Shown here one piece after another: positions 14,277-29,513 of a DNA stretch of 64,000 nucleotides (its first letter is position 1; every line of letters starts with the position of its first letter). The notes below the pieces were generated by a model. It saw nothing but the letters and a program-made list of their open reading frames with translations, was not told the origin of the DNA and ran no database searches. This DNA is from Candidatus Latescibacterota bacterium (GTDB lineage Bacteria; Latescibacterota; UBA2968). The DNA is taken from contig OZ240241.1 in NCBI GenBank assembly GCA_965198115.1, forward strand, positions 2,080,001 through 2,144,000. Direction: 5' to 3'. A program made the translations under genes and the position numbers.

Positions 14277-15411
14277 ATGAAAATCACGGACGTCACAACC
14301 ACCCGCTTCAAATACACCTCCAACACTGTCCGCGACACCGACGGCCACGGCCATCCTGGCCCCGAGCACGAGGCGATTCAAACGCTGCTGCAGATCGATA
14401 CCGATGAAGATGTCAACGGCTACTGGTTCGGCGCGAACCCGTCCATCGTCGAGAGCGTCATCAAACCCGCGCTCGTCGGACTCGATCCGTTCGATCGCGA
14501 ATGGATCTGGGACGACCTGAACCAACGACAGCGTCTGAATCTGGGAACGATGTCCGATCGCGTGCTCTGCAGCGTGGACTGCGCGCTGTGGGACCTCGCC
14601 GGCCGGGCTCTGGGGAAACCCGTTTACAAGCTCCTCGGCGGTTTTAGGGACACAGTCCCCGCCTACTGCAGCACGATGTGTGGCGACGACCTCGAGGGCG
14701 GTCTCGCGACGCCCCAGGACTATGCCAACTTCGCCGAGTGGGCGATGAAGAAGGGCTACCCCTCCTACAAACTCCACACCTGGCAGCCACCCTACGAGGG
14801 TGCTCCCAGCGTCAAGCGCGACCTGGAAGCGTGCGCTGCGGTACGTGACGTCTGTGGACCGGACGTGCCGCTCATGCTCGATCCCTACCACTACTATGAC
14901 AGGGAAGCCGCGCTCAAGCTTGCGAAGGGTCTTGAGGAAATCGACTACTACTGGATGGAAGAGCCCATGGACGAGCACAGCATGTCCTCATACATCTGGC
15001 TCACCGCGCAGACGTCGCTACCGATCTGCGGGCCGGAAACGTGCGAGGGCAAGATGTACGTCCGTGCCGAGTGGATCAAAAACAACGCGTGTGACATCAG
15101 CCGTGCCGGTGTCGGAGACGTTGGTGGCATCACCCCGCTGATGAAAACCGTTCACCTCTGCGAGTCGTTCGGGATGCGATGTGAAATCCACGGTGGGGGC
15201 CCCGGCAATCTCCACGCGCTCTGTGCGATGAAGAACGGCGAGTTTTACGAGCGTGGACTCCACTCCCTTCATCGAATTCGACGAACCCGCCGCCTGGCTC
15301 AACGAGCTTGTCGACCCTATGGACGGTCAAGGATTCGTCCACGTTCCGCAGACACCGGGCCTCGGAATGAATATCAACTGGGACTACATCGAGAAGAACA
15401 AGGTCGATTAG
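14277..15411 (+). CDS. Mandelate racemase/muconate lactonizing enzyme (enolase superfamily) protein, frameshift near 15263
   Basis: DCALWDLAGR..GKPVYKLLGG, WMEEP, GGIT. The family-like C-terminus (PFIEFD...VHVPQTPGLG.NINWD) lies in another frame ending at 15411. Confidence 0.88.
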
Positions 15412-15723
15412 GCCAAGGTCAGTTCTCAGAAGTCAGCGGAAATGCAAAGACCGCCCATCTTATTCATGCATCTGGCTACCGCTCTGGGTGGATATCGGTG
15501 CAGCTCCACAACTGAGGTGATATCGTATCGCCTTCCAAACGAGCCAACGGCCCGTAATACCTCAGCCCAGCCCAACGGGCTGGGGTCATCCGAACAAGCA
15601 AACGGGCACAGCGGGCCACAGCCCGCGATATCACCATCACAGGCGCATATCCGACACCTCACCTGGAGGAAATTTCCCCGATCCCGTCGTACGGTCTTTC
15701 CCGAACACTGAACACCTACCACT

Positions 15724-17958: not shown

Positions 17959-19290
17959 TCACGCGCTTCGTGCCCAGAAGCTCGTCCGATCGTTCAGCTC
18001 GGTTTCCCATCGCGACATCTCACCACGCAGAGCCTTAACGACGTCGGCCTGATCCCGATCTTCGATCAGATTCGTCATTTCCCAAGGATCGGTTTTCAGA
18101 TCGAACAGCTGAGACGTTCGGTTCCCTTCCACTGCGTACTCGATCAGCTTGTGATCCCCACGCTTCGCACTCCGCTGAAACGCCTTGTAGGCGTATAACA
18201 GTGTCTCCCGCACACACTCGGATCCATCCCCCATCGCATTGACCAGACTCTCGCCTTCGACGGAGTCCGGAATCGGAAGGTCGGCCAGATCGAACAACGT
18301 CGGATAGATATCGTTCAGGTAGCAGTACGCCTCCCGGCGCTCGCCCCTCGGAATCCCCGGCCCCCTGAACACCAGAGGAACCCGCACGCTGTGCTCATAG
18401 ACGTTCTGTTTGCCCATCAGACCGTGTTGCCCCACGGCCAGCCCGTTGTCGCCCGCGAACACGACGATCGTATTCTCTCGATGACGCGTTTCTTCCAGCG
18501 TATCTAACAGCCTACCCACCTGTCGATCCAGGTGGGAAATCATCGCGTAATAGTCGGCGAGGTGCTGGCTCACGACCTCGGGCGTTCGGGGAAACGGCGC
18601 CAGTAGCTCGTCCCGCGTCTCCAGATCTCCGTTGTCGAACGGATGTCGCTCAAAACAGTTGGGCGGAAGCTTCAGCTTCTCCGCATCGTAAAGCGCGTGG
18701 AATTCCGGATGCGTATCACGTGGGTCGTGAGGGGCAGTAAACGAGACATACGCGAAAAATGGGGCTTGCCCATCGTAGCTTTTTAGAAAGTCGATCGCCG
18801 CCTCTGAAAACAGATCGCTCGAATGACGCTTGCTTTCTTGATAGATGCCTGCCTCAGCGTAGGTCCCCGATTCGTCGTAGGGATTGAGGGGCACCTTGAA
18901 GTGATCGCTCATTCCACCGAAGAAAATCCGGTCACCGTGGTCGAAGCATCGCGCGAACGCCGGTCGGCCGTTGTGCCACTTTCCCGTCCCGAAGGTCTGA
19001 TACCCGTGATCGCGTAGGGCTTCGGGCATCATGATGTGATTTTCCGGGATCGACTGTCCTTCCCCCTCGAGATGGAAAAGCGTGCGCCCCCGTCATCAGC
19101 ATGGCCCGACTTGGCATGCATACGGCGCCCGACGTCCCCCCATAATGCTGGCCTCGGTGAACATCGTCCCCTCTTCGACCAATCGGTCCAGGTTGGGTGT
19201 AATGACATCGTCGTTCCCGAGCGCGCGAATCGTGTCGTAGCGCTGATCGTCCGTGAACAGAAACAGAATGTTGGGTTTTGAACGGTCCAT
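17959..19290 (-). CDS. Cys-type sulfatase, with two homopolymer frameshifts near 19090 and 19138
   Basis: [13 protein letters not shown], (GAV)CMPSR, GKWH, APHDP and GDNG spread over three frames. Confidence 0.85.
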
Positions 19291-19577
19291 CAGTCGCTCT
19301 TCTCGATCTCCCAGCCTGTCAGAAAACTTCGGTCCTCTTCCATCGGCTGACACCAGATCCTCTTCGCCCGAAATCGCACTTCGAATTCGACCATTTCCCC
19401 GCCTCCCGTGTAGGCATCCAGATCATCGATGTCGTCACACCACAGCTGCAGACCCGAGGGACTGATGTCCACGATCTGAACATCCCTGAAGCCTCCACCA
19501 TCGACCTGTGCTTCGACCGGAAGAGCCAACCGCAACCGCGCGTTGCGGCGTTGATCGTTACCCGTTGCTTCTGCCAT
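19290..19577 (-). CDS. PilZ domain protein
   Basis: QRRNAR (RxxxR) and DISPSG (DxSxxG) motifs. Confidence 0.75.
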
Positions 19578-22735: not shown

Positions 22736-24155
22736 GGCTCTATCCGGGTTTCTCAACGGTGAAACTATAGAATGACAAGGTCATAGATCGTTCCCTACGC
22801 TTGGTTGTGTGTGTAGGACAATCAAAGCGAAGGGGGTGCGACCTATGACCGGGAGCAGATTACTATCGAAACTGCTGAGATTCAAGGGGTTCCGTGTTGT
22901 CAGCTGGTGGTTTGAGGGGAGAAGCTGTTTCGTCATCGCCGTAAAGCCACATAAGAATGGTTGTTGTTGTCCGGAGTGCGGCCGTCGAGGTAAAATCGTC
23001 CGCACAATGCCCCATCCGCGTCGGTGGCGTGACATTCCGGTGTGCGGGTGGAGGGTCTGGCTTCTCTACCATCCTCGGGAGATTCGGTGTCCTACCCACG
23101 GTCGTGTGGTCGAGGAGATTCCGTGGGCGGAGCGGTTCTCTCGGGTGACGTATCGCTTCGAGTATGCCATGCTGCGCTACTGCCAGACCATGACGCAGAA
23201 GGCGGCGTCCGAGTTACTGCGCATCTCTGCCTCGACGCTGTCGGATCTCCTTCACCGATCCATCACGCGGCTTCGTGAAGGTCATCGTATCCGAGGGCTC
23301 AAAACCATCGGGATCGACGAGATCTCCTACGCCAAGCGTCACAGGTACGCCACGCTCGTTTACGATCTGGACCGCTCCTGCGTGGTGTGGGTTGGCCGCG
23401 GCAGGGCGCGTAAAACGATCGATCGGTTCTTCACAGAGGCTCTCAGTCCCTACCGGAGATCCAAGATCGAGTGGGCCTGCTGCGACATGAGCGAAGCTTA
23501 CATCGGAGCCATCCAGGAACACTGTCCGAATGCCAAGCTGGTCCTCGATCGCTTTCACATCGTCAAGGCTCTCAATGCCGCCGTTGACGAGGTCCGTAAG
23601 GACCAGTGGCGTAAAGCTGCCCCGGATGAGCGCAAAGCCATGAAGGGCCTCCGATGGCTCCTCTACCGGCACTCAGCGACACGCTCCAGAGGGGATACTC
23701 GGACACTCAAAGCACTGGAGAAGGCGAACTACCGAATCTATAGAGCCTGGAGACTCAAGGACGAGTTCGAGCAGTTCTGGGAATACAAAGCGCCCTGGGC
23801 TGCCGAACGCTTCCTGAAATGCTGGACGACGTCCGCACTCAGAAGTCGACTTGAACCCCTGCGAAAGTTCGTCAGGACCCTGCGACAGCACTTCTTCGGC
23901 GTCCTCGCATTCGTGAACACGCGTCTTACCAACGCCATCGCCGAAGGCCTCAACCGAATCGTCCAAATCGTCAAGAACCGAGCCAGCGGATTCCGCACAC
24001 TCGACGCATTCAACGATATGATCTTCCTTACCGTCGGAGACATAAACATCCCTGAGCAGATTCCGAAGAGGTTCCGCACACGCTAACCGCGCCCCCATGC
24101 CAGGAACCACGGCACCTTCACCCACTTCATCTCGTTGAGAGATCCGGATATAGCC
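22736..24155 (+). mobile_element. ISL3-family insertion sequence, complete
   Basis: 23-bp terminal inverted repeats (22736-58 and 24133-55; 20/23 match). AT-rich 8-bp flanks ATAAAAAA / ATTAAAAA (one mismatch). Confidence 0.92.
22845..24086 (+). CDS. ISL3 family transposase
   Basis: CPECG zinc finger, IGIDE, CDM, DRFHIV, TNAIAEGLN..Q.VK..A.GFR. Confidence 0.95.
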   Translation: MTGSRLLSKLLRFKGFRVVSWWFEGRSCFVIAVKPHKNGCCCPECGRRGKIVRTMPHPRRWRDIPVCGWRVWLLYHPREIRCPTHGRVVEEIPWAERFSRVTYRFEYAMLRYCQTMTQKAASELLRISASTLSDLLHRSITRLREGHRIRGLKTIGIDEISYAKRHRYATLVYDLDRSCVVWVGRGRARKTIDRFFTEALSPYRRSKIEWACCDMSEAYIGAIQEHCPNAKLVLDRFHIVKALNAAVDEVRKDQWRKAAPDERKAMKGLRWLLYRHSATRSRGDTRTLKALEKANYRIYRAWRLKDEFEQFWEYKAPWAAERFLKCWTTSALRSRLEPLRKFVRTLRQHFFGVLAFVNTRLTNAIAEGLNRIVQIVKNRASGFRTLDAFNDMIFLTVGDINIPEQIPKRFRTR

Positions 24156-24242: not shown

Positions 24243-24733
24243 GTGATAGAACCTAGTCAGATCCGGTTACCATTCGCAAGCTTCGGGCAAGGTAGTTGAG
24301 GCTGATTTTGCCGGTGGCGCCGTCAGGAGTGACGGTGGAGTTCTGTTGCTTCGCGCCCTTGAGTCTCAGATGGGATTGATCGCCAGAATGGTAGATGCTT
24401 TGCGAGATCGTCGTCACCCAAGCTATATCGATCACACGCTTTTGGATCTTGTGAAGCAGCGTGTTTTTCAGATCGCTTGCGGCTATGAAGATGCCGTCGA
24501 TTGTGATGATTTGCGCCACGATCCGGGCGTCAAGGCTGCCTGCGATCGGCTTCCTCTTTCCGGTCCTGATCTCGGGAGCCAATCAACGATGACACGACTT
24601 GAGAATGATGTGCGACGCTCGGATTTGTATCGGCTCGCACGGGCTTTTGTAGACGGGTTCATCGCATCGTATGACCAGGCACCCCCAAGCATCATTCTCG
24701 ATATCGACGACACGGATGACCCAACGCACGGTG
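24243..24733 (+). pseudogene. IS1380-family transposase N-terminal fragment (frameshifted, truncated)
   Basis: ADFAGG...SDGG.LLLR, QRVFQIACGYED..D...LRHDP, SQSTMTRLEN, IILDIDDTDDPTHG. Confidence 0.88.
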
Positions 24734-24775
24734 CCGCCCGCGTACTCACACCATGAAGGTCAGAAAGGAATTGTA

Positions 24776-24940
24776 ATGGCGCATCTTCGAAGAATTAATC
24801 GACATAATAACACCAAGAAGAAGAATGGCAACACGCTTTCGTGCGATGACGGGTTCTACTACCCCGCCCCTGCCAAAACCCCCGATCTCAAGTCTGACGA
24901 TCAGGTCCAGGCCAAAGAAGCGAAGAAGAACGTCGCGTAA
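24776..24940 (+). CDS. Putative RiPP precursor peptide (54 aa)
   Basis: MAHLRRINRHNNTKKKNGNTLSCDDGFYYPAPAKTPDLKSDDQVQAKEAKKNVA. AGAAAGGAA RBS, stop 5 nt before the rSAM start, and an H-L-x-x-I-N leader as in SCIFF/CteA and QhpC. Confidence 0.8.
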   Translation: MAHLRRINRHNNTKKKNGNTLSCDDGFYYPAPAKTPDLKSDDQVQAKEAKKNVA

Positions 24941-24945
24941 GGGTA

Positions 24946-26354
24946 ATGCTGAAGAAGTCTGACATCCATCTGTTCGACTACGAAGGCCGCCCAATCGTAC
25001 TTCAGATCCAAACGGGCGATTTCTTCGAAGTCACTCGGCTCGTCGCTGAGATCCTCCGATCGGATGACGGTATCCGTCGCGAGGATCTCGTAGCCGACCT
25101 CTCTCCGAGCCACGGTTTCGAAGCCGTCATCGACGCGCTTTCGGAACTCGAAGCGGCGGACCTGGTCTCGTTCGGCCCAGTCTGCCCGCTCGTCGACTCG
25201 GGGGACGGTGCGGTGGTCCCTCCCACCCGCACGTCCGCCGAGACGATCACGATCACCCTCCACGTTTCGCACGCCTGTAACGTCACCTGCTCGTACTGCT
25301 TTGCACTCGGCGGCGACTATGGCGGGGAACCCAAGCTGATGGCCTGGAAACGGCGAAGCAGACTGTGGATTGGCTGATCGAGGCAACTCGAGATGCGGGT
25401 CGGTGTCAGATCGACTTCTTCGGAGGCGAGCCGCTCCTCCATCTCGGCCTCGTGAAGAAGACCGTGGCTTATGCGCGCCAGCAGGGCGCTGCGAACGGCG
25501 TTGCGGTTTCGTTCGGAATGACGACGAACGGAACCCTCCTATCGGGCGACGCACTCGAGTTCCTGATGGAAGAAGACATTGGAATCATGGTCAGCATCGA
25601 CAGCCCCAAGGAAGTCCACGACGCACAGCGCAGCTTCAATAACGGTGAGTCGACGTACGACATCGTGGCGGCGAACACGACAGAAGCTGCCCGCCGTGCG
25701 CCCGACAAGGTCTTGCTCCGGGCGACGATGACGAATAAAAACCTCGACATGATGGCCCTCGTGGACGAACTCGAGGGTTTCGAGGTCAATTCCGTTGGTG
25801 TCGGACCAGCGTGGCTTTCTCATCATCATCCTACGGCGATTCGGAAAGAGCACCTCCCCGAACTCAGGAAGCACATCCGAACGCTCGCAAACGATGAGCT
25901 GAAGCGTATCAAAGAGGGGCACAAGGCTGAAACATTCGCACCATTGATCAAGAAAGTCTTGTCGGGACAGAAGCGGGAATACGGGTGTGGTGGTGGGAAG
26001 ACCTACTTTGGCGTCGACGTCGATGGCGACATCTATTTCTGCTCGGCCTTCGGCAGCATGCCCGAATACAAAATGGGCGACGTCTGGAAGGGGCTGGACC
26101 CCACGGTGGACGCACGTTTCCGACGCGACTTCCACGTCGACAACAAGAAGACGTGCAGCCAGTGCTGGGCCCGATACCTCTGTGGCGGAGGCTGTGCCTA
26201 CGATGCCAGGGTATCAACCGGCGAACCCACCGAACCCAATCCGGTCGCTTGCGAGCGTACCCGCTACTCGCACGAACTCGCAATGGGAATGGCTCTCGAG
26301 CTGAGCGACCACGCACCGGATGCACTCGACCGCCTCCAGATCGAAAAGGTCTGA
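24946..26354 (+). CDS. RRE-containing radical SAM/SPASM peptide maturase (CteB/QhpD-like), single-base frameshift near 25347
   Basis: N-terminal IHLF...IVLQIQTGDFFEV RRE-like segment, CNVTCSYC, FFGGEPLL, TTNG, SPASM CGGG...DGDIYFC...CSQCWARYLCGGGC...C. Adding one G restores MAWETAKQTVDWL. Confidence 0.9.
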
Positions 26355-26364
26355 CGGAGATAAA

Positions 26365-27786
26365 ATGAGCAATCAAACACACACGACAAAGACCCCCTTG
26401 CCGATGGCGGAAACCCCAGAAAGTGCCCCCTCTGCGGGTCTAAATGCTTCGGCAAGGGGGCCGAAACGTCTCCCCCACGAGGGTTGGATGTTGGCTCCCC
26501 TCTATGTCGCCGAACATCATCTGTTCGAGCACAATGGTCGCACGCTTCTCTTTGGCGTCGGAACGGCCGACTTCTTCGAGATCGATGATGTCGTCGAGGA
26601 TGTGCTGAAGACAATCGAGGGCACCACACTCATCCAGCTGTTCGAGCGTCTTCGATCCTCTCACGGCGAAAAGGATCTCTACAGCGCAGTCCGCGAACTC
26701 CGTGAGGCCGAGATCGTTTCCGAAGAGCGGCTTGCCCGCCCGACGGCACCGGTCCTTCCCGGTCGTCTCGAAGTTTCGGAAATCGTCCTTGAAGTAACCA
26801 CGGATTCTCTGTCAGCACAGAGCGGGAGTCAGTATCTCCGTCCGGCGACCGGTCGAGAGGCCATCAGACTGTTGATGGAGGAGTCGGGGTGTCTCCGCAC
26901 GTGTTCCCTCACGCTCACGGGAGAGCCACTCCTCAATTCCCAGCTCACACTCGATCTGCTCGATCACGCCATCGAACGCGCCGAGCAGATCGGCAAGCGA
27001 TTGCGCCTGGCCGTCGTCACCAATCCAAGATTGGTGAACGAGCGTATTCGTATCTCGCTGAAGCGTCGTGGTGTCGATCTCGTCATCAACGACACAGCGG
27101 GTACGCTCGAAGGCGTGCACGGCTCGGGACCGGCCAGCCTGCAGAGAAGCGCGCTCACGAGTAGTCCACCCACGCATCTTCGCATCGAATCGGTGGATGA
27201 AACGCCGGTGCACCAGATTCGAGAGGCTTTAGACGAAAATCAAAACCTCGCGACGGTCGATCTCCCACCATCGACACCCGGACACCTCTGTCCTGTCTCC
27301 GAAAGAGATCTCGAAGAACTCAGCGCATTCGTCAGCCAGCACGTCATGTCCTCGAAAATGACCTGGATCGGCCCGATCGAGGACTCGGCGGCTCAAGTCT
27401 TCAACGGCCGCCGCGCCAGCTACGGCGACTCAGCTGGCATCACCAGTCTCGCTGTTGGCTGCGATGGAACGATTTACGTGTCCGAAGAAGTCATCGGAGA
27501 TTCCCGCTACCGGATGGGCCACATCCAGAGTGGGCTCGATCAGGGCCGGCGGGCTCAGTGGATTCGAGAAGCCCACGTCGATGCCCGACCCGGCTGCCAG
27601 ACCTGTTGGGCCCGACATCTCTGCGGTGGCGGGTCGACGGTGGCGGTGGGCAATTGCCCAGATCCCGACTCCGACTACTGCACGATCGTGCGTCGGTCCT
27701 ACGAACTGGCAATGGGTTTATGCGTAGACCTCGACGTGCGAAACCCCGATCTCCTCGAACAACGCTACGGACAGGGTGCTGCGTGA
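26365..27786 (+). CDS. Degenerate radical SAM/SPASM paralog with RRE, lacking CxxxCxxC
   Basis: RRE-like HHLFEHNGRTLLFGVGTADFFEID; LEVTTDSLSAQSGSQY replaces the Cys motif; GEPLL and CQTCWARHLCGGGS...C retained. Confidence 0.82.
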   Translation: MSNQTHTTKTPLPMAETPESAPSAGLNASARGPKRLPHEGWMLAPLYVAEHHLFEHNGRTLLFGVGTADFFEIDDVVEDVLKTIEGTTLIQLFERLRSSHGEKDLYSAVRELREAEIVSEERLARPTAPVLPGRLEVSEIVLEVTTDSLSAQSGSQYLRPATGREAIRLLMEESGCLRTCSLTLTGEPLLNSQLTLDLLDHAIERAEQIGKRLRLAVVTNPRLVNERIRISLKRRGVDLVINDTAGTLEGVHGSGPASLQRSALTSSPPTHLRIESVDETPVHQIREALDENQNLATVDLPPSTPGHLCPVSERDLEELSAFVSQHVMSSKMTWIGPIEDSAAQVFNGRRASYGDSAGITSLAVGCDGTIYVSEEVIGDSRYRMGHIQSGLDQGRRAQWIREAHVDARPGCQTCWARHLCGGGSTVAVGNCPDPDSDYCTIVRRSYELAMGLCVDLDVRNPDLLEQRYGQGAA

Positions 27787-28990
27787 ACATCCTCTTCTAC
27801 CAGGACACGTCGGGAGTCAGCGGGGCGGAGATATGGATCGCCGACGCCGCTCGACGTCTGCGCGAGCGAGGGCACGGGATCAGCCTGTCAGCGCCGACCG
27901 AATCCTGGATAGCTGCCCAAGACCGGCATCACGGATTCCCGCTCGTCGATTTCTTCTCCGGCGATGGATTCGACGCCCATCGGCGGTGGATCCTGGCTGA
28001 ACATCTTTCTGCAGCGAGCGTAGACATCGTGGTGTGCAGCATTCCCGGCGCAAGGATGGAGGTGCCACTCCTAGATCAAGCGATTCGGGATGCGGGACGA
28101 GGTAAAATCCTGATTCGTCTGGGTGTCGCCCCTGGCGAAGGCGCCTTTCCACCCGAACGAGTGGGCTACGGCTACGACACCGTTAGTGGGATCATTGCTG
28201 TCTCCCGCGACGTCAAGCATCATCTCGTCCGCAACTTCCCGATGCTCGACAGAGACAGAATCCACGTCGTCTACAATGGCGTCGACCTCGAGCGATTCGG
28301 TCCAGAAACCCACAGCGACGTCGAACGTGCCTCCCAGCGACGCGACCTGGACATTCCCGCCGACCACCGTGTCGTCGCGGCCGTCGGACGGCTCGATCCG
28401 ATCAAGAATCTGCCTTGCCTGATCGACGCAGCCGACATCGTCCTCGAGCGCTTCCCCGCGACCACCTTCGTCATCGCTGGCGACGGTGCAGAACGCGTCA
28501 CGCTCGAAAAATGCGGTCGTCTCCAAAGGGTTGAGTGACGCCTTTTCGCTTTCCCGGTTTCGTCAAAGATGTCCCTGGACTGTTGTCCATCGTCGACATC
28601 GTCGTGCATCCCTCCCTGTCGGAGGGCGTACCCAACACGCTTTTGGAAGCAATGGCTGCCCAGAAGGCCGTGGTGGCATCCGAGGTCGGTGGAATTTCGG
28701 AGGTCGTCGACAATCCTGAAGTCGGCGTGCTCGTTCCCCCCGCCAGTCCATCGGCTCTGGCCGAGACACTCACATCCCTCGTCGGCAGCGAGGATCGACG
28801 CGCAGGACTGGGCTCGAGGGCCCGAGCGCACGTTCTATCTCACTTTGACCGAGCCACCAACATCAGACAGATCGAAGACCTGTTCGACCAGGTTCTACGA
28901 TCGGCAACACCGCTCGCACCGGCGTCCGAACAGCAGCTATACGATCCACCCTACGCGTTTACTGCGCGTGACCATCTGTTGCGTGCATAG
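27783..28990 (+). CDS. GT4 (GT-B) glycosyltransferase, with two +1 homopolymer slips near 28510 and 28545
   Basis: SGAE, VVYNGVD, VGRLDPIKN, IAGDG, PSLSEG.PN.LLEAMA, VGG..EVV; GTG start overlaps the upstream TGA. Confidence 0.88.
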
Positions 28991-29123
28991 TCTGCCGGCG
29001 GCCGTCGGGTGGGCCGCCGGTGGACCATAGATTGGGAACCCCACAAAAGCTTCAGACGTGCAAAGAGTCGGGCAATCTTCTTCTGGGAGGATGCCCGTTT
29101 GTTTTTGACTAAACAGGCCTTCA

Positions 29124-29513
29124 ATGCCGAAGATTCTCCTCATCGACGACGAACCTGACGTGCGACACGTCACGCGGGAGTGCCTGTCAACCAAGGGCTT
29201 CGAGGTCGATATCCCGGCCGTCGAAGACTCGGCCATATCCCGCTCGACCGTTCAAGCGGCCACGACGGACGGATACGATCTGATCATTCTCGATCTCCGA
29301 CTCCCACACCTGGACCCGTTCGATCTGATTCGATCCGTAAACGAATCAGAGGGTCCGCCGATCATGGTTCTGGCCGGTTTTCTGTCGCTGGAGCTCGAGA
29401 GCAGCCTGCGAGCAGCCGGAGTCCATTCGTTCACGACCAAACCGTTTACATTTTCGGATCTCCTGTCCTCGGTCGAAGAGTGCATGGCATCATCGGTGGC
29501 CGTCCGTATTTGA
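29124..29513 (+). CDS. Single-domain response regulator
   Basis: ILLIDDE, DLIILDLRLP, KPF. Confidence 0.88.
   Translation: MPKILLIDDEPDVRHVTRECLSTKGFEVDIPAVEDSAISRSTVQAATTDGYDLIILDLRLPHLDPFDLIRSVNESEGPPIMVLAGFLSLELESSLRAAGVHSFTTKPFTFSDLLSSVEECMASSVAVRI

Follow-up and report, generated by a model that had tools for sequence, protein, structure and literature searches.

The gene at the centre of this analysis lies in a stretch of DNA of 64,000 nucleotides (the window) and encodes a radical SAM (rSAM)/SPASM protein, P0001, which to judge from its sequence is non-catalytic. With moderate confidence, we propose that P0001 is a conserved rSAM duplicate that acts as the adaptor subunit of a GT4 glycosyltransferase without an RRE, presenting a peptide for glycosylation. 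We advance more tentatively, as a joint proposition, that an entire radical SAM/SPASM enzyme has taken on the task of directing a peptide glycosyltransferase, as one of its subunits, to the substrate, within a sigma54-controlled and hitherto undescribed class of glycopeptides with a single Cys cross-linked by radical SAM chemistry, and that the clade of P0001 is a natural series in which the SAM cluster was lost first and AuxI afterwards, with a sister lineage dropping AuxII instead. Such stepwise losses bear on the roles of AuxI and AuxII in SPASM proteins. The adaptor role, if true, would be the first defined job of any pseudo-rSAM, would show how a tailoring enzyme without an RRE gains leader-directed specificity and would offer a modular means to aim a glycosyltransferase at peptides.

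The start codon of P0001 is preceded, six bases upstream, by GGAG, and the start site is the same in the aligned relatives (Table 1). The AlphaFold2 model (mean pLDDT 78) has a CteB-like fold of RRE, barrel and SPASM domain, with a partial TIM barrel; its top Foldseek matches are radical SAM structures, the closest being CteB (TM 0.68-0.70), and P0001 aligns to CteB 5WGG by HMM with an E of 1e-58. All motifs quoted by the first-pass annotation, a reading of the DNA letters, are found where it placed them in P0001 and its upstream paralog. In this alignment, HVSHACNVTCSYC of the active paralog (25261-25299) corresponds to EVTTDSLSAQSGSQY of P0001 (26791-26835), YGCGGG and DGDIYFC are replaced by YGDSAG (27421-27438) and DGTIYVS (27463-27483), and CSQCWARYLCGGGC corresponds to CQTCWARHLCGGGS (27595-27636), with the distal Cys439 retained. 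P0001 is left without CxxxCxxC and without all three AuxI cysteines, and keeps four of the seven SPASM cysteines. The SAM-binding motifs have decayed too, in that GGEP lacks one Gly, TNG has become TNP and SxDG is lost. P0001 scores below the gathering threshold of the Pfam Radical_SAM model PF04055 (13.1 versus 29.5 bits) and above the cut-off of the SPASM model TIGR04085 (32.2 versus 27 bits).

Table 1. Features of the pseudo-rSAM gene and its cassette in the window (positions of the window; aa, residues of P0001 unless stated otherwise)
Feature	Position	Strand	Remarks
ISL3 transposase	22809-24086	+	in place of the sigma54 activator gene and promoter of relatives
DDE_Tnp_1_4 transposase remnant	24346-24756	+	in place of the sigma54 activator gene and promoter of relatives
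Precursor-like peptide	24776..24940	+	54 aa (peptide), one Cys (LSCDDGFYYP); layout homologous to the G006 peptide
Catalytic-type RRE-rSAM-SPASM gene	24946..26354	+	CxxxCxxC and seven SPASM Cys; frameshift near 25345-25350
Pseudo-radical-SAM/SPASM protein P0001	26365..27786	+	473 aa, stop-free frame, ATG at 26365
RRE	26500..26718	+	aa 46-118; three strands and three helices; from model and CteB alignment
Linker motif PxRLE	26749..26778	+	aa 129-138; equivalent stretch in predicted GT4 interface of the G009 pair
Former CxxxCxxC loop	26791..26835	+	now TTD and a shorter variable loop
SG-x-x-R loop and K211	26884..26997	+	loop aa 174-179; equivalents in predicted GT4 interface
Former AuxI ligands 1 and 2	27421..27483	+	now Asp355 and Ser373
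AuxII ligands; former AuxI ligand 3	27595..27681	+	C411, C414, C420 and C439 retained; AuxI ligand 3 now Ser424
GT4 glycosyltransferase, cassette-specific clade	27783..28990	+	without RRE; start overlaps pseudo-rSAM stop; split near 28505-28545

The assignment of these cysteines to AuxI and AuxII is sound for CteB-type SPASM domains, for which the accessible text of PMC12093266 gives the mapping of three plus four ligands, and agrees with the alignment to CteB 5WGG; the heading 'anSME/CteB-type', under which it was originally made, is slightly loose. According to the available part of PMC6231123, the auxiliary clusters of anSME are fully ligated and AuxI of CteB binds the substrate Cys.

The loss of the catalytic motif is a property of a clade. 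The first relatives found, nine proteins with 31-71% identity to P0001, all lack CxxxCxxC. A cysteine census was then based on 212 aligned proteins, 172 of which have the full ten cysteines, and 21 full-length clade members remained after removal of the duplicate P0024, the fragments G003_2, P0030, P0033, P0036, P0037 and P0134, and P0041, which has a separate origin (the fragment P0003 lies outside the census). CxxxCxxC is missing in all 21, so that no close ortholog retains it, and the four AuxII cysteines are kept in all 21; P0004-P0006 have one Cys left in the former CxxxCxxC loop. The AuxI cysteines are all present in eight members, in which the seven SPASM cysteines are complete, partly present in six and absent from the seven that form the subclade of the window protein. 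The first-pass annotation had stated that exactly the SAM-cluster and AuxI ligands are lost, which is true of this subclade, whereas eight members keep AuxI; orthologs share the loss of CxxxCxxC and the retention of AuxII, but AuxI loss is not family-wide.

Within the subclade, the three lost AuxI cysteines are replaced by Asp/Ser/Ser in six of the seven members, and by Glu/Ser/Ser in the seventh, and the emptied site may bind something else. P0002, which is 69% identical to P0001, has the same Asp/Ser/Ser pattern. P0041 was considered as a further clade member and rejected, being motif-less but of separate origin (p-AU 0.02); its rSAM/SPASM part is joined to a Peptidase_S24-like domain.

In a tree of 65 rows, the 16 motif-less rows form one clade (SH-aLRT 94) that is sister to G034_2, and the two together are sister to the active enzymes of the cassette (SH-aLRT 99). 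The grouping of motif-less rows persists in a tree of 62 rows with the cysteines masked, where forms with full AuxI make up a basal grade, forms with partial AuxI and without AuxI are nested clades, the sister group comprises G034_2 and P0031, and P0034, which has an odd motif, shares an open fork with the motif-less rows. Both trees come from quick LG+G4 searches, without bootstrap. From these sequence comparisons, the pseudo-rSAM clade is an old duplicate within the cassette. G034_2 (L037:8897-10378, in G034) and P0031 display the reciprocal loss, keeping CxxxCxxC and AuxI while their AuxII cysteines are gone, and in G034 a different type of GT4 follows downstream of G034_2.

The pseudo gene is under purifying selection in relatives. 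The dN/dS values (NG86) are 0.15 for G009/G006, 0.33 for G054/L093 and 0.18 for G058/G054, compared with 0.06, 0.20 and 0.15 for the active gene in the same three pairs, whereas dS is saturated in every pair that includes the pseudo or active gene of the window. Intact pseudo-rSAM frames occur in three families of the class. The RRE is the sole domain that is not relaxed, with a mean identity of 0.42 in the pseudo clade and 0.40 in active enzymes, whereas identity falls to 0.25-0.40 from 0.45-0.57 in the barrel and to 0.42 from 0.66 in the AuxII region. These values and the clade-wide motif loss bear out the earlier view of a selected non-catalytic partner over random decay. Outside the set of relatives, a metagenome search returned 80 loci with a clade member in L093 only, a scan of genome contigs with P0001 gave weak SPASM matches in Bdellovibrionales only, which we do not take as evidence, and the ESM Atlas yielded nothing beyond generic radical SAM clusters.

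The cassette in this strain is, on the evidence of its sequence, probably inactive, so that any argument for a function has to be drawn from relatives. The active paralog and the GT4 gene, on either side of the pseudo gene, are both frameshifted, which the first-pass annotation overlooked; its observation that the long frame is intact is correct, but carries little weight, given that the enzyme genes on both sides are broken in this genome. The frameshifts are likely real. Contigs of two sequencing runs, from one sample, match 24705-29200 with no difference and 0 gaps; a region holding three background splits is matched by these contigs as well, and as the library type is unrecorded they are perhaps the source data. 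An assembly error behind the motif loss is rejected, since relatives share the loss and the contigs of the two runs match letter for letter. The genome is rich in IS elements, three of which give 256, 143 and 37 BLAST matches of 250 nt or more, and 13 of 180 conserved genes are split in comparison with the same-genus genome G001, at least one of these being a tandem-paralog artefact. This genome, G000, has about 6-7% of its conserved genes split, a very high IS load and 8.4 Mb, versus 3.6-6.5 Mb in same-family relatives.

The peptide, catalytic-type rSAM, pseudo-rSAM and GT4 genes follow one another in the window behind the ISL3 transposase and the DDE remnant. In relatives, a large TPR-GAF-sigma54 activator gene lies upstream of the cassette, the scanned copy of G043 having a kinase domain, and 13 of 27 peptide genes have a -24/-12 motif in front of them (1.4% in shuffles). 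No -24/-12 sigma54 motif was found in the window and no full-length sigma54 activator in its genome, and a scan for sigma70 promoters and terminators remained at chance level. At the same site, G001 has only a truncated GT4 remnant.

The pseudo-rSAM gene co-occurs with one clade of GT4. Of 32 loci examined, 26 contain the active rSAM and extend for 5 kb or more downstream of it; five of these have both the pseudo-rSAM and the clade GT4, 21 have neither and none has one alone, although the pair-less loci are mostly from genus g4 and the genomes are kin, so that these counts reflect few independent events and we claim no test. Among the 21, one locus has a motif-bearing second copy without the clade GT4 and 20 have no second copy. 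The pair is also present in the window and in L044, and the L033 sequence ends just 3' of the pseudo gene. With the N-terminal half as query, the GT4 clade was found in 7 of 168 genomes of the phylum, six times directly 3' of the pseudo gene and once as the G001 remnant, and the gap between the two genes ranges from -32 to +64 nt at six loci. The first-pass annotation held that absence from most homologous loci would tell against its reading. Formally, 21 of 26 loci are without a motif-less copy, but the GT4 clade is missing from those loci too; this speaks against an obligatory partnership with the active rSAM, not against a function. Indeed, the active enzyme of G043, a locus with the pair, is sister to that of G039, a locus without it, and thus the active enzyme seems not to need the copy.

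The clade GT4 keeps the EGxPNxxxE motif and has no RRE. Its best family and structure matches are GT4 enzymes of the envelope, of exopolysaccharide and of small molecules, and TIGR04157 is the best NCBIfam match of its N-terminal half, far below the cut-off; the molecule names given for the 35 listed solved GT4 relatives, the sole basis of this comparison, include no rSAM partner. An additional GT9 with a fused RRE-like domain (hhalign 97.5%) is found in G058, G054 and L093. Because the GT9 carries its own RRE-like domain, the glycosyltransferases of these cassettes appear, from sequence, to be leader-directed. The RRE-GT9, which is heptosyltransferase-like, lies between the two rSAM genes (L035:3773-6160, L034:11045-12409 and L093:656-3019); in G058, where the frames of both the peptide and the GT4 are split too, it is truncated.

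A heterodimer with the GT, of the kind the first-pass annotation had suggested modelling, was modelled for the intact G009 pair, in which the pseudo-rSAM is 31% identical to P0001. The predicted complex of pseudo-rSAM and GT4 reaches an ipSAE of 0.68, compared with 0.23 for the best of three controls; the mark applied to such scores is reached by 116 of 157 solved pairs and by 2 of 215 mismatched pairs, a calibration that is only roughly valid for custom alignments. Between runs, 57% or more of the contacts are shared, and the partner has a pLDDT of at least 86. On the pseudo-rSAM side, the predicted interface comprises the PxRLE linker, the SG-x-x-R loop and K211, and on the GT4 side the G-H-x-R-W helix, within which W69 is invariant, and the C-terminal LYDLP tail. 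The interface residues listed for the model include none from the RRE, unlisted residues being merely uncertain. Of 19 clade-specific conserved positions, a set defined beforehand, 7 fall in the 20-residue interface where 0.86 would be expected, with a p of 5e-6 that is overstated because neighbouring residues are not independent. P132, E136, G175 and K211 are also present in G034_2, P0031, P0034 and P0041 and are therefore partly ancestral; the C-terminal tail of the GT4 diverges in G043, G054 and G058. The complex model, which may have been steered by conserved patches of the alignments, supports binding of the pseudo-rSAM to the GT4 without demonstrating it. The pair, with its named candidate interface residues, is intact in G009, G043 and G054.

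The proposed mechanism sets out from a duplicate that has lost its catalytic motif clade-wide, is retained by purifying selection in relatives, and co-occurs with and directly precedes one clade of GT4. The PxRLE linker, the SG-x-x-R loop and K211 are predicted to contact the helix and tail of the GT4, and the RRE of the pseudo-rSAM would then catch the leader and present the core to the GT4, which would add a sugar to the peptide, probably after cross-linking of its single Cys by the active rSAM. AuxII would be kept as a structural metal site, whereas AuxI may have become dispensable after the loss of catalysis, given that its job in CteB is to hold the substrate Cys. Of the three roles offered earlier for the protein, namely scaffold, leader reader for the GT and electron relay, the evidence favours the second.

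We consider it unlikely that P0001 instead pairs with the active rSAM as a heterodimer in which it binds the leader and enhances cross-linking, a role that would be compatible with that of an adaptor. The model for such a partnership is TrnD of thuricin CD, which, in the accessible text of PMC12093266, is likewise a second rSAM/SPASM paralog whose single auxiliary cluster has a CxxCx5C motif, associates with TrnC by way of the RREs, and needs its RRE while its CxxxCxxC and radical chemistry are dispensable. The conservation of the RRE in the pseudo clade fits this arrangement, and the available part of PMC10352776 puts forward the same partnership for Bacteroidales pseudo-rSAMs. However, TrnD, according to the same portion of PMC12093266, still has its CxxxCxxC, cleaves SAM and works with the catalytic TrnC, whereas the motif of P0001 is gone and its favoured partner is a glycosyltransferase; moreover, 20 of the 26 loci have the peptide and the active rSAM with no second copy, and the sister relationship of the G043 and G039 active enzymes points the same way. 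To a regulatory subunit, which would bind the GT4, sense the modified peptide and switch the activity of the GT4 towards an acceptor other than a peptide, for instance a glycan or lipid of the envelope, we assign the same low probability. The co-occurrence and the complex model fit this reading too, as do the envelope, exopolysaccharide and small-molecule matches of the GT4 and a receiver-domain gene located 3' of the GT4 in the window, G001, G054 and G058, but the RRE-GT9 fusion found in these cassettes suggests that it is the peptide that receives the sugar, and the receiver gene is not seen at this place in G003, G009 and G043.

It is less probable still that the AuxII cluster shuttles electrons with the active rSAM or reports oxygen. 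The retention of its cysteines in all 21 members would be expected of a relay or redox sensor, but the AuxII region is relaxed, the sister lineage of G034_2 and P0031 dispensed with AuxII yet retained the other clusters, the copy is missing beside most active enzymes, and the four cysteines may hold Zn or a purely structural cluster. Least probable is a decaying relic or assembly artefact without function. The two frameshifted flanking genes, the split genes of an IS-rich genome and the bare GT4 remnant of G001 fit decay of the cassette in this strain and not of the family, for which this reading is already contradicted by intact frames in three families and dN/dS well below 1; the substitutions that P0002 shares with P0001 and the letter-for-letter match of the contigs of two runs also speak against it. 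A role as leader-binding adaptor of the GT4 is the explanation we favour.

Compared with known systems, P0001 shares with the CteB-type thioether maturases (CteB 5WGG/5WHY; TIGR03974, NF047865 PapB, TIGR03906 QhpD) the domain order and fold, with N-terminal RRE, barrel and SPASM in one chain, and the four AuxII ligands, but differs in having no CxxxCxxC, decayed SAM motifs and no AuxI ligands. It scores far under every equivalog cut-off of CteB, PapB and QhpD (best 116.7 versus 453 bits), and 14 clade members gave weak matches to these models by E-value only. Another comparable family is TIGR04150 pseudo_rSAM_GG (InterPro IPR026418) of the GG-Bacteroidales system, where a pseudo-rSAM likewise neighbours a peptide and an active rSAM, joined in one cluster by a glycosyltransferase, and for which the accessible text of PMC10352776 assigns no function. 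P0001 has no match to TIGR04150 up to an E of 1, descends from a duplication inside its own cassette and, in contrast to that system, stands beside peptides that match no family. None of seven scanned cassette peptides belongs to the GG-type precursor family or reaches any other (one weak WIAG-tail match, E 0.15), although many peptides of genus g4 do carry GG just before the Cys; the C-terminal part of the active gene scores 65.6 bits with the maturase model TIGR04148, below its cut-off of 300. P0001 likewise has no match, at the window gene, to TIGR04347 pseudo_SAM_Halo, to judge from its name another pseudo-rSAM family. A full-length TIGR04347 match of 409.6 bits (cut-off 525) is present elsewhere in the same genome, at L055 (G000:C1:4189095-4190279).

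Leader-directed glycosyltransferases are predicted in RiPP clusters, including RRE-glycosyltransferase fusions, in the accessible parts of PMC7470986 and PMC12710340. The present cassette has such an RRE-GT9 fusion in three loci, whereas the clade GT4 lacks an RRE, which would come in trans on a dead enzyme. Pseudo-rSAMs as such are already catalogued (TIGR04150, TIGR04347), and the portion of PMC10352776 available lists them in RiPP clusters with none having an experimentally assigned function. The new element is the specific adaptor role, of which we found no report in the literature searched, where few subscription journals are covered.

The cassettes also open up an unnamed peptide family across a bacterial class. 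Precursors at L042-L051 and L205-L215 have an RRKLxLING leader, PPLPFP, an acidic tail and usually one core Cys, often after GG; they lie beside an rSAM and a sigma54 activator, with up to three copies per genome in genus g4. A Ser directly precedes the core Cys in four of five peptides at pseudo-rSAM loci (window 24776-24940; L033-L036) and in 2 of 21 at single-rSAM loci, a weak, kin-dependent difference that marks this Ser as a possible sugar acceptor. At the positions of the CteB His-Gln pair, taken from the available text of PMC10288494, the active enzyme carries Ser-Ala, so that its chemistry is not certain.

The receiver-domain gene 3' of the GT4 lies at 29124-29513 in the window and at L034:7960-8328 and L035:8893-9261 in relatives, being seen in G054, G058 and G001; no such gene was seen at this place in G003, G009 and G043. 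In G003 and G009, the genes 3' of the GT4 are presumably flagellar export-like. Elsewhere in the window, 14277-15515 and 17959-19353 appear to hold frameshifted genes that we take to be enolase-superfamily-like and sulfatase-like, respectively. Finally, P0042, P0113, P0166 and P0167 combine an intact rSAM/SPASM enzyme with an extra N-terminal domain of ~300 aa, for which P0042 gave no Pfam match; its DDxxD-like motifs recall, we presume, prenyltransferase or terpene-synthase folds.
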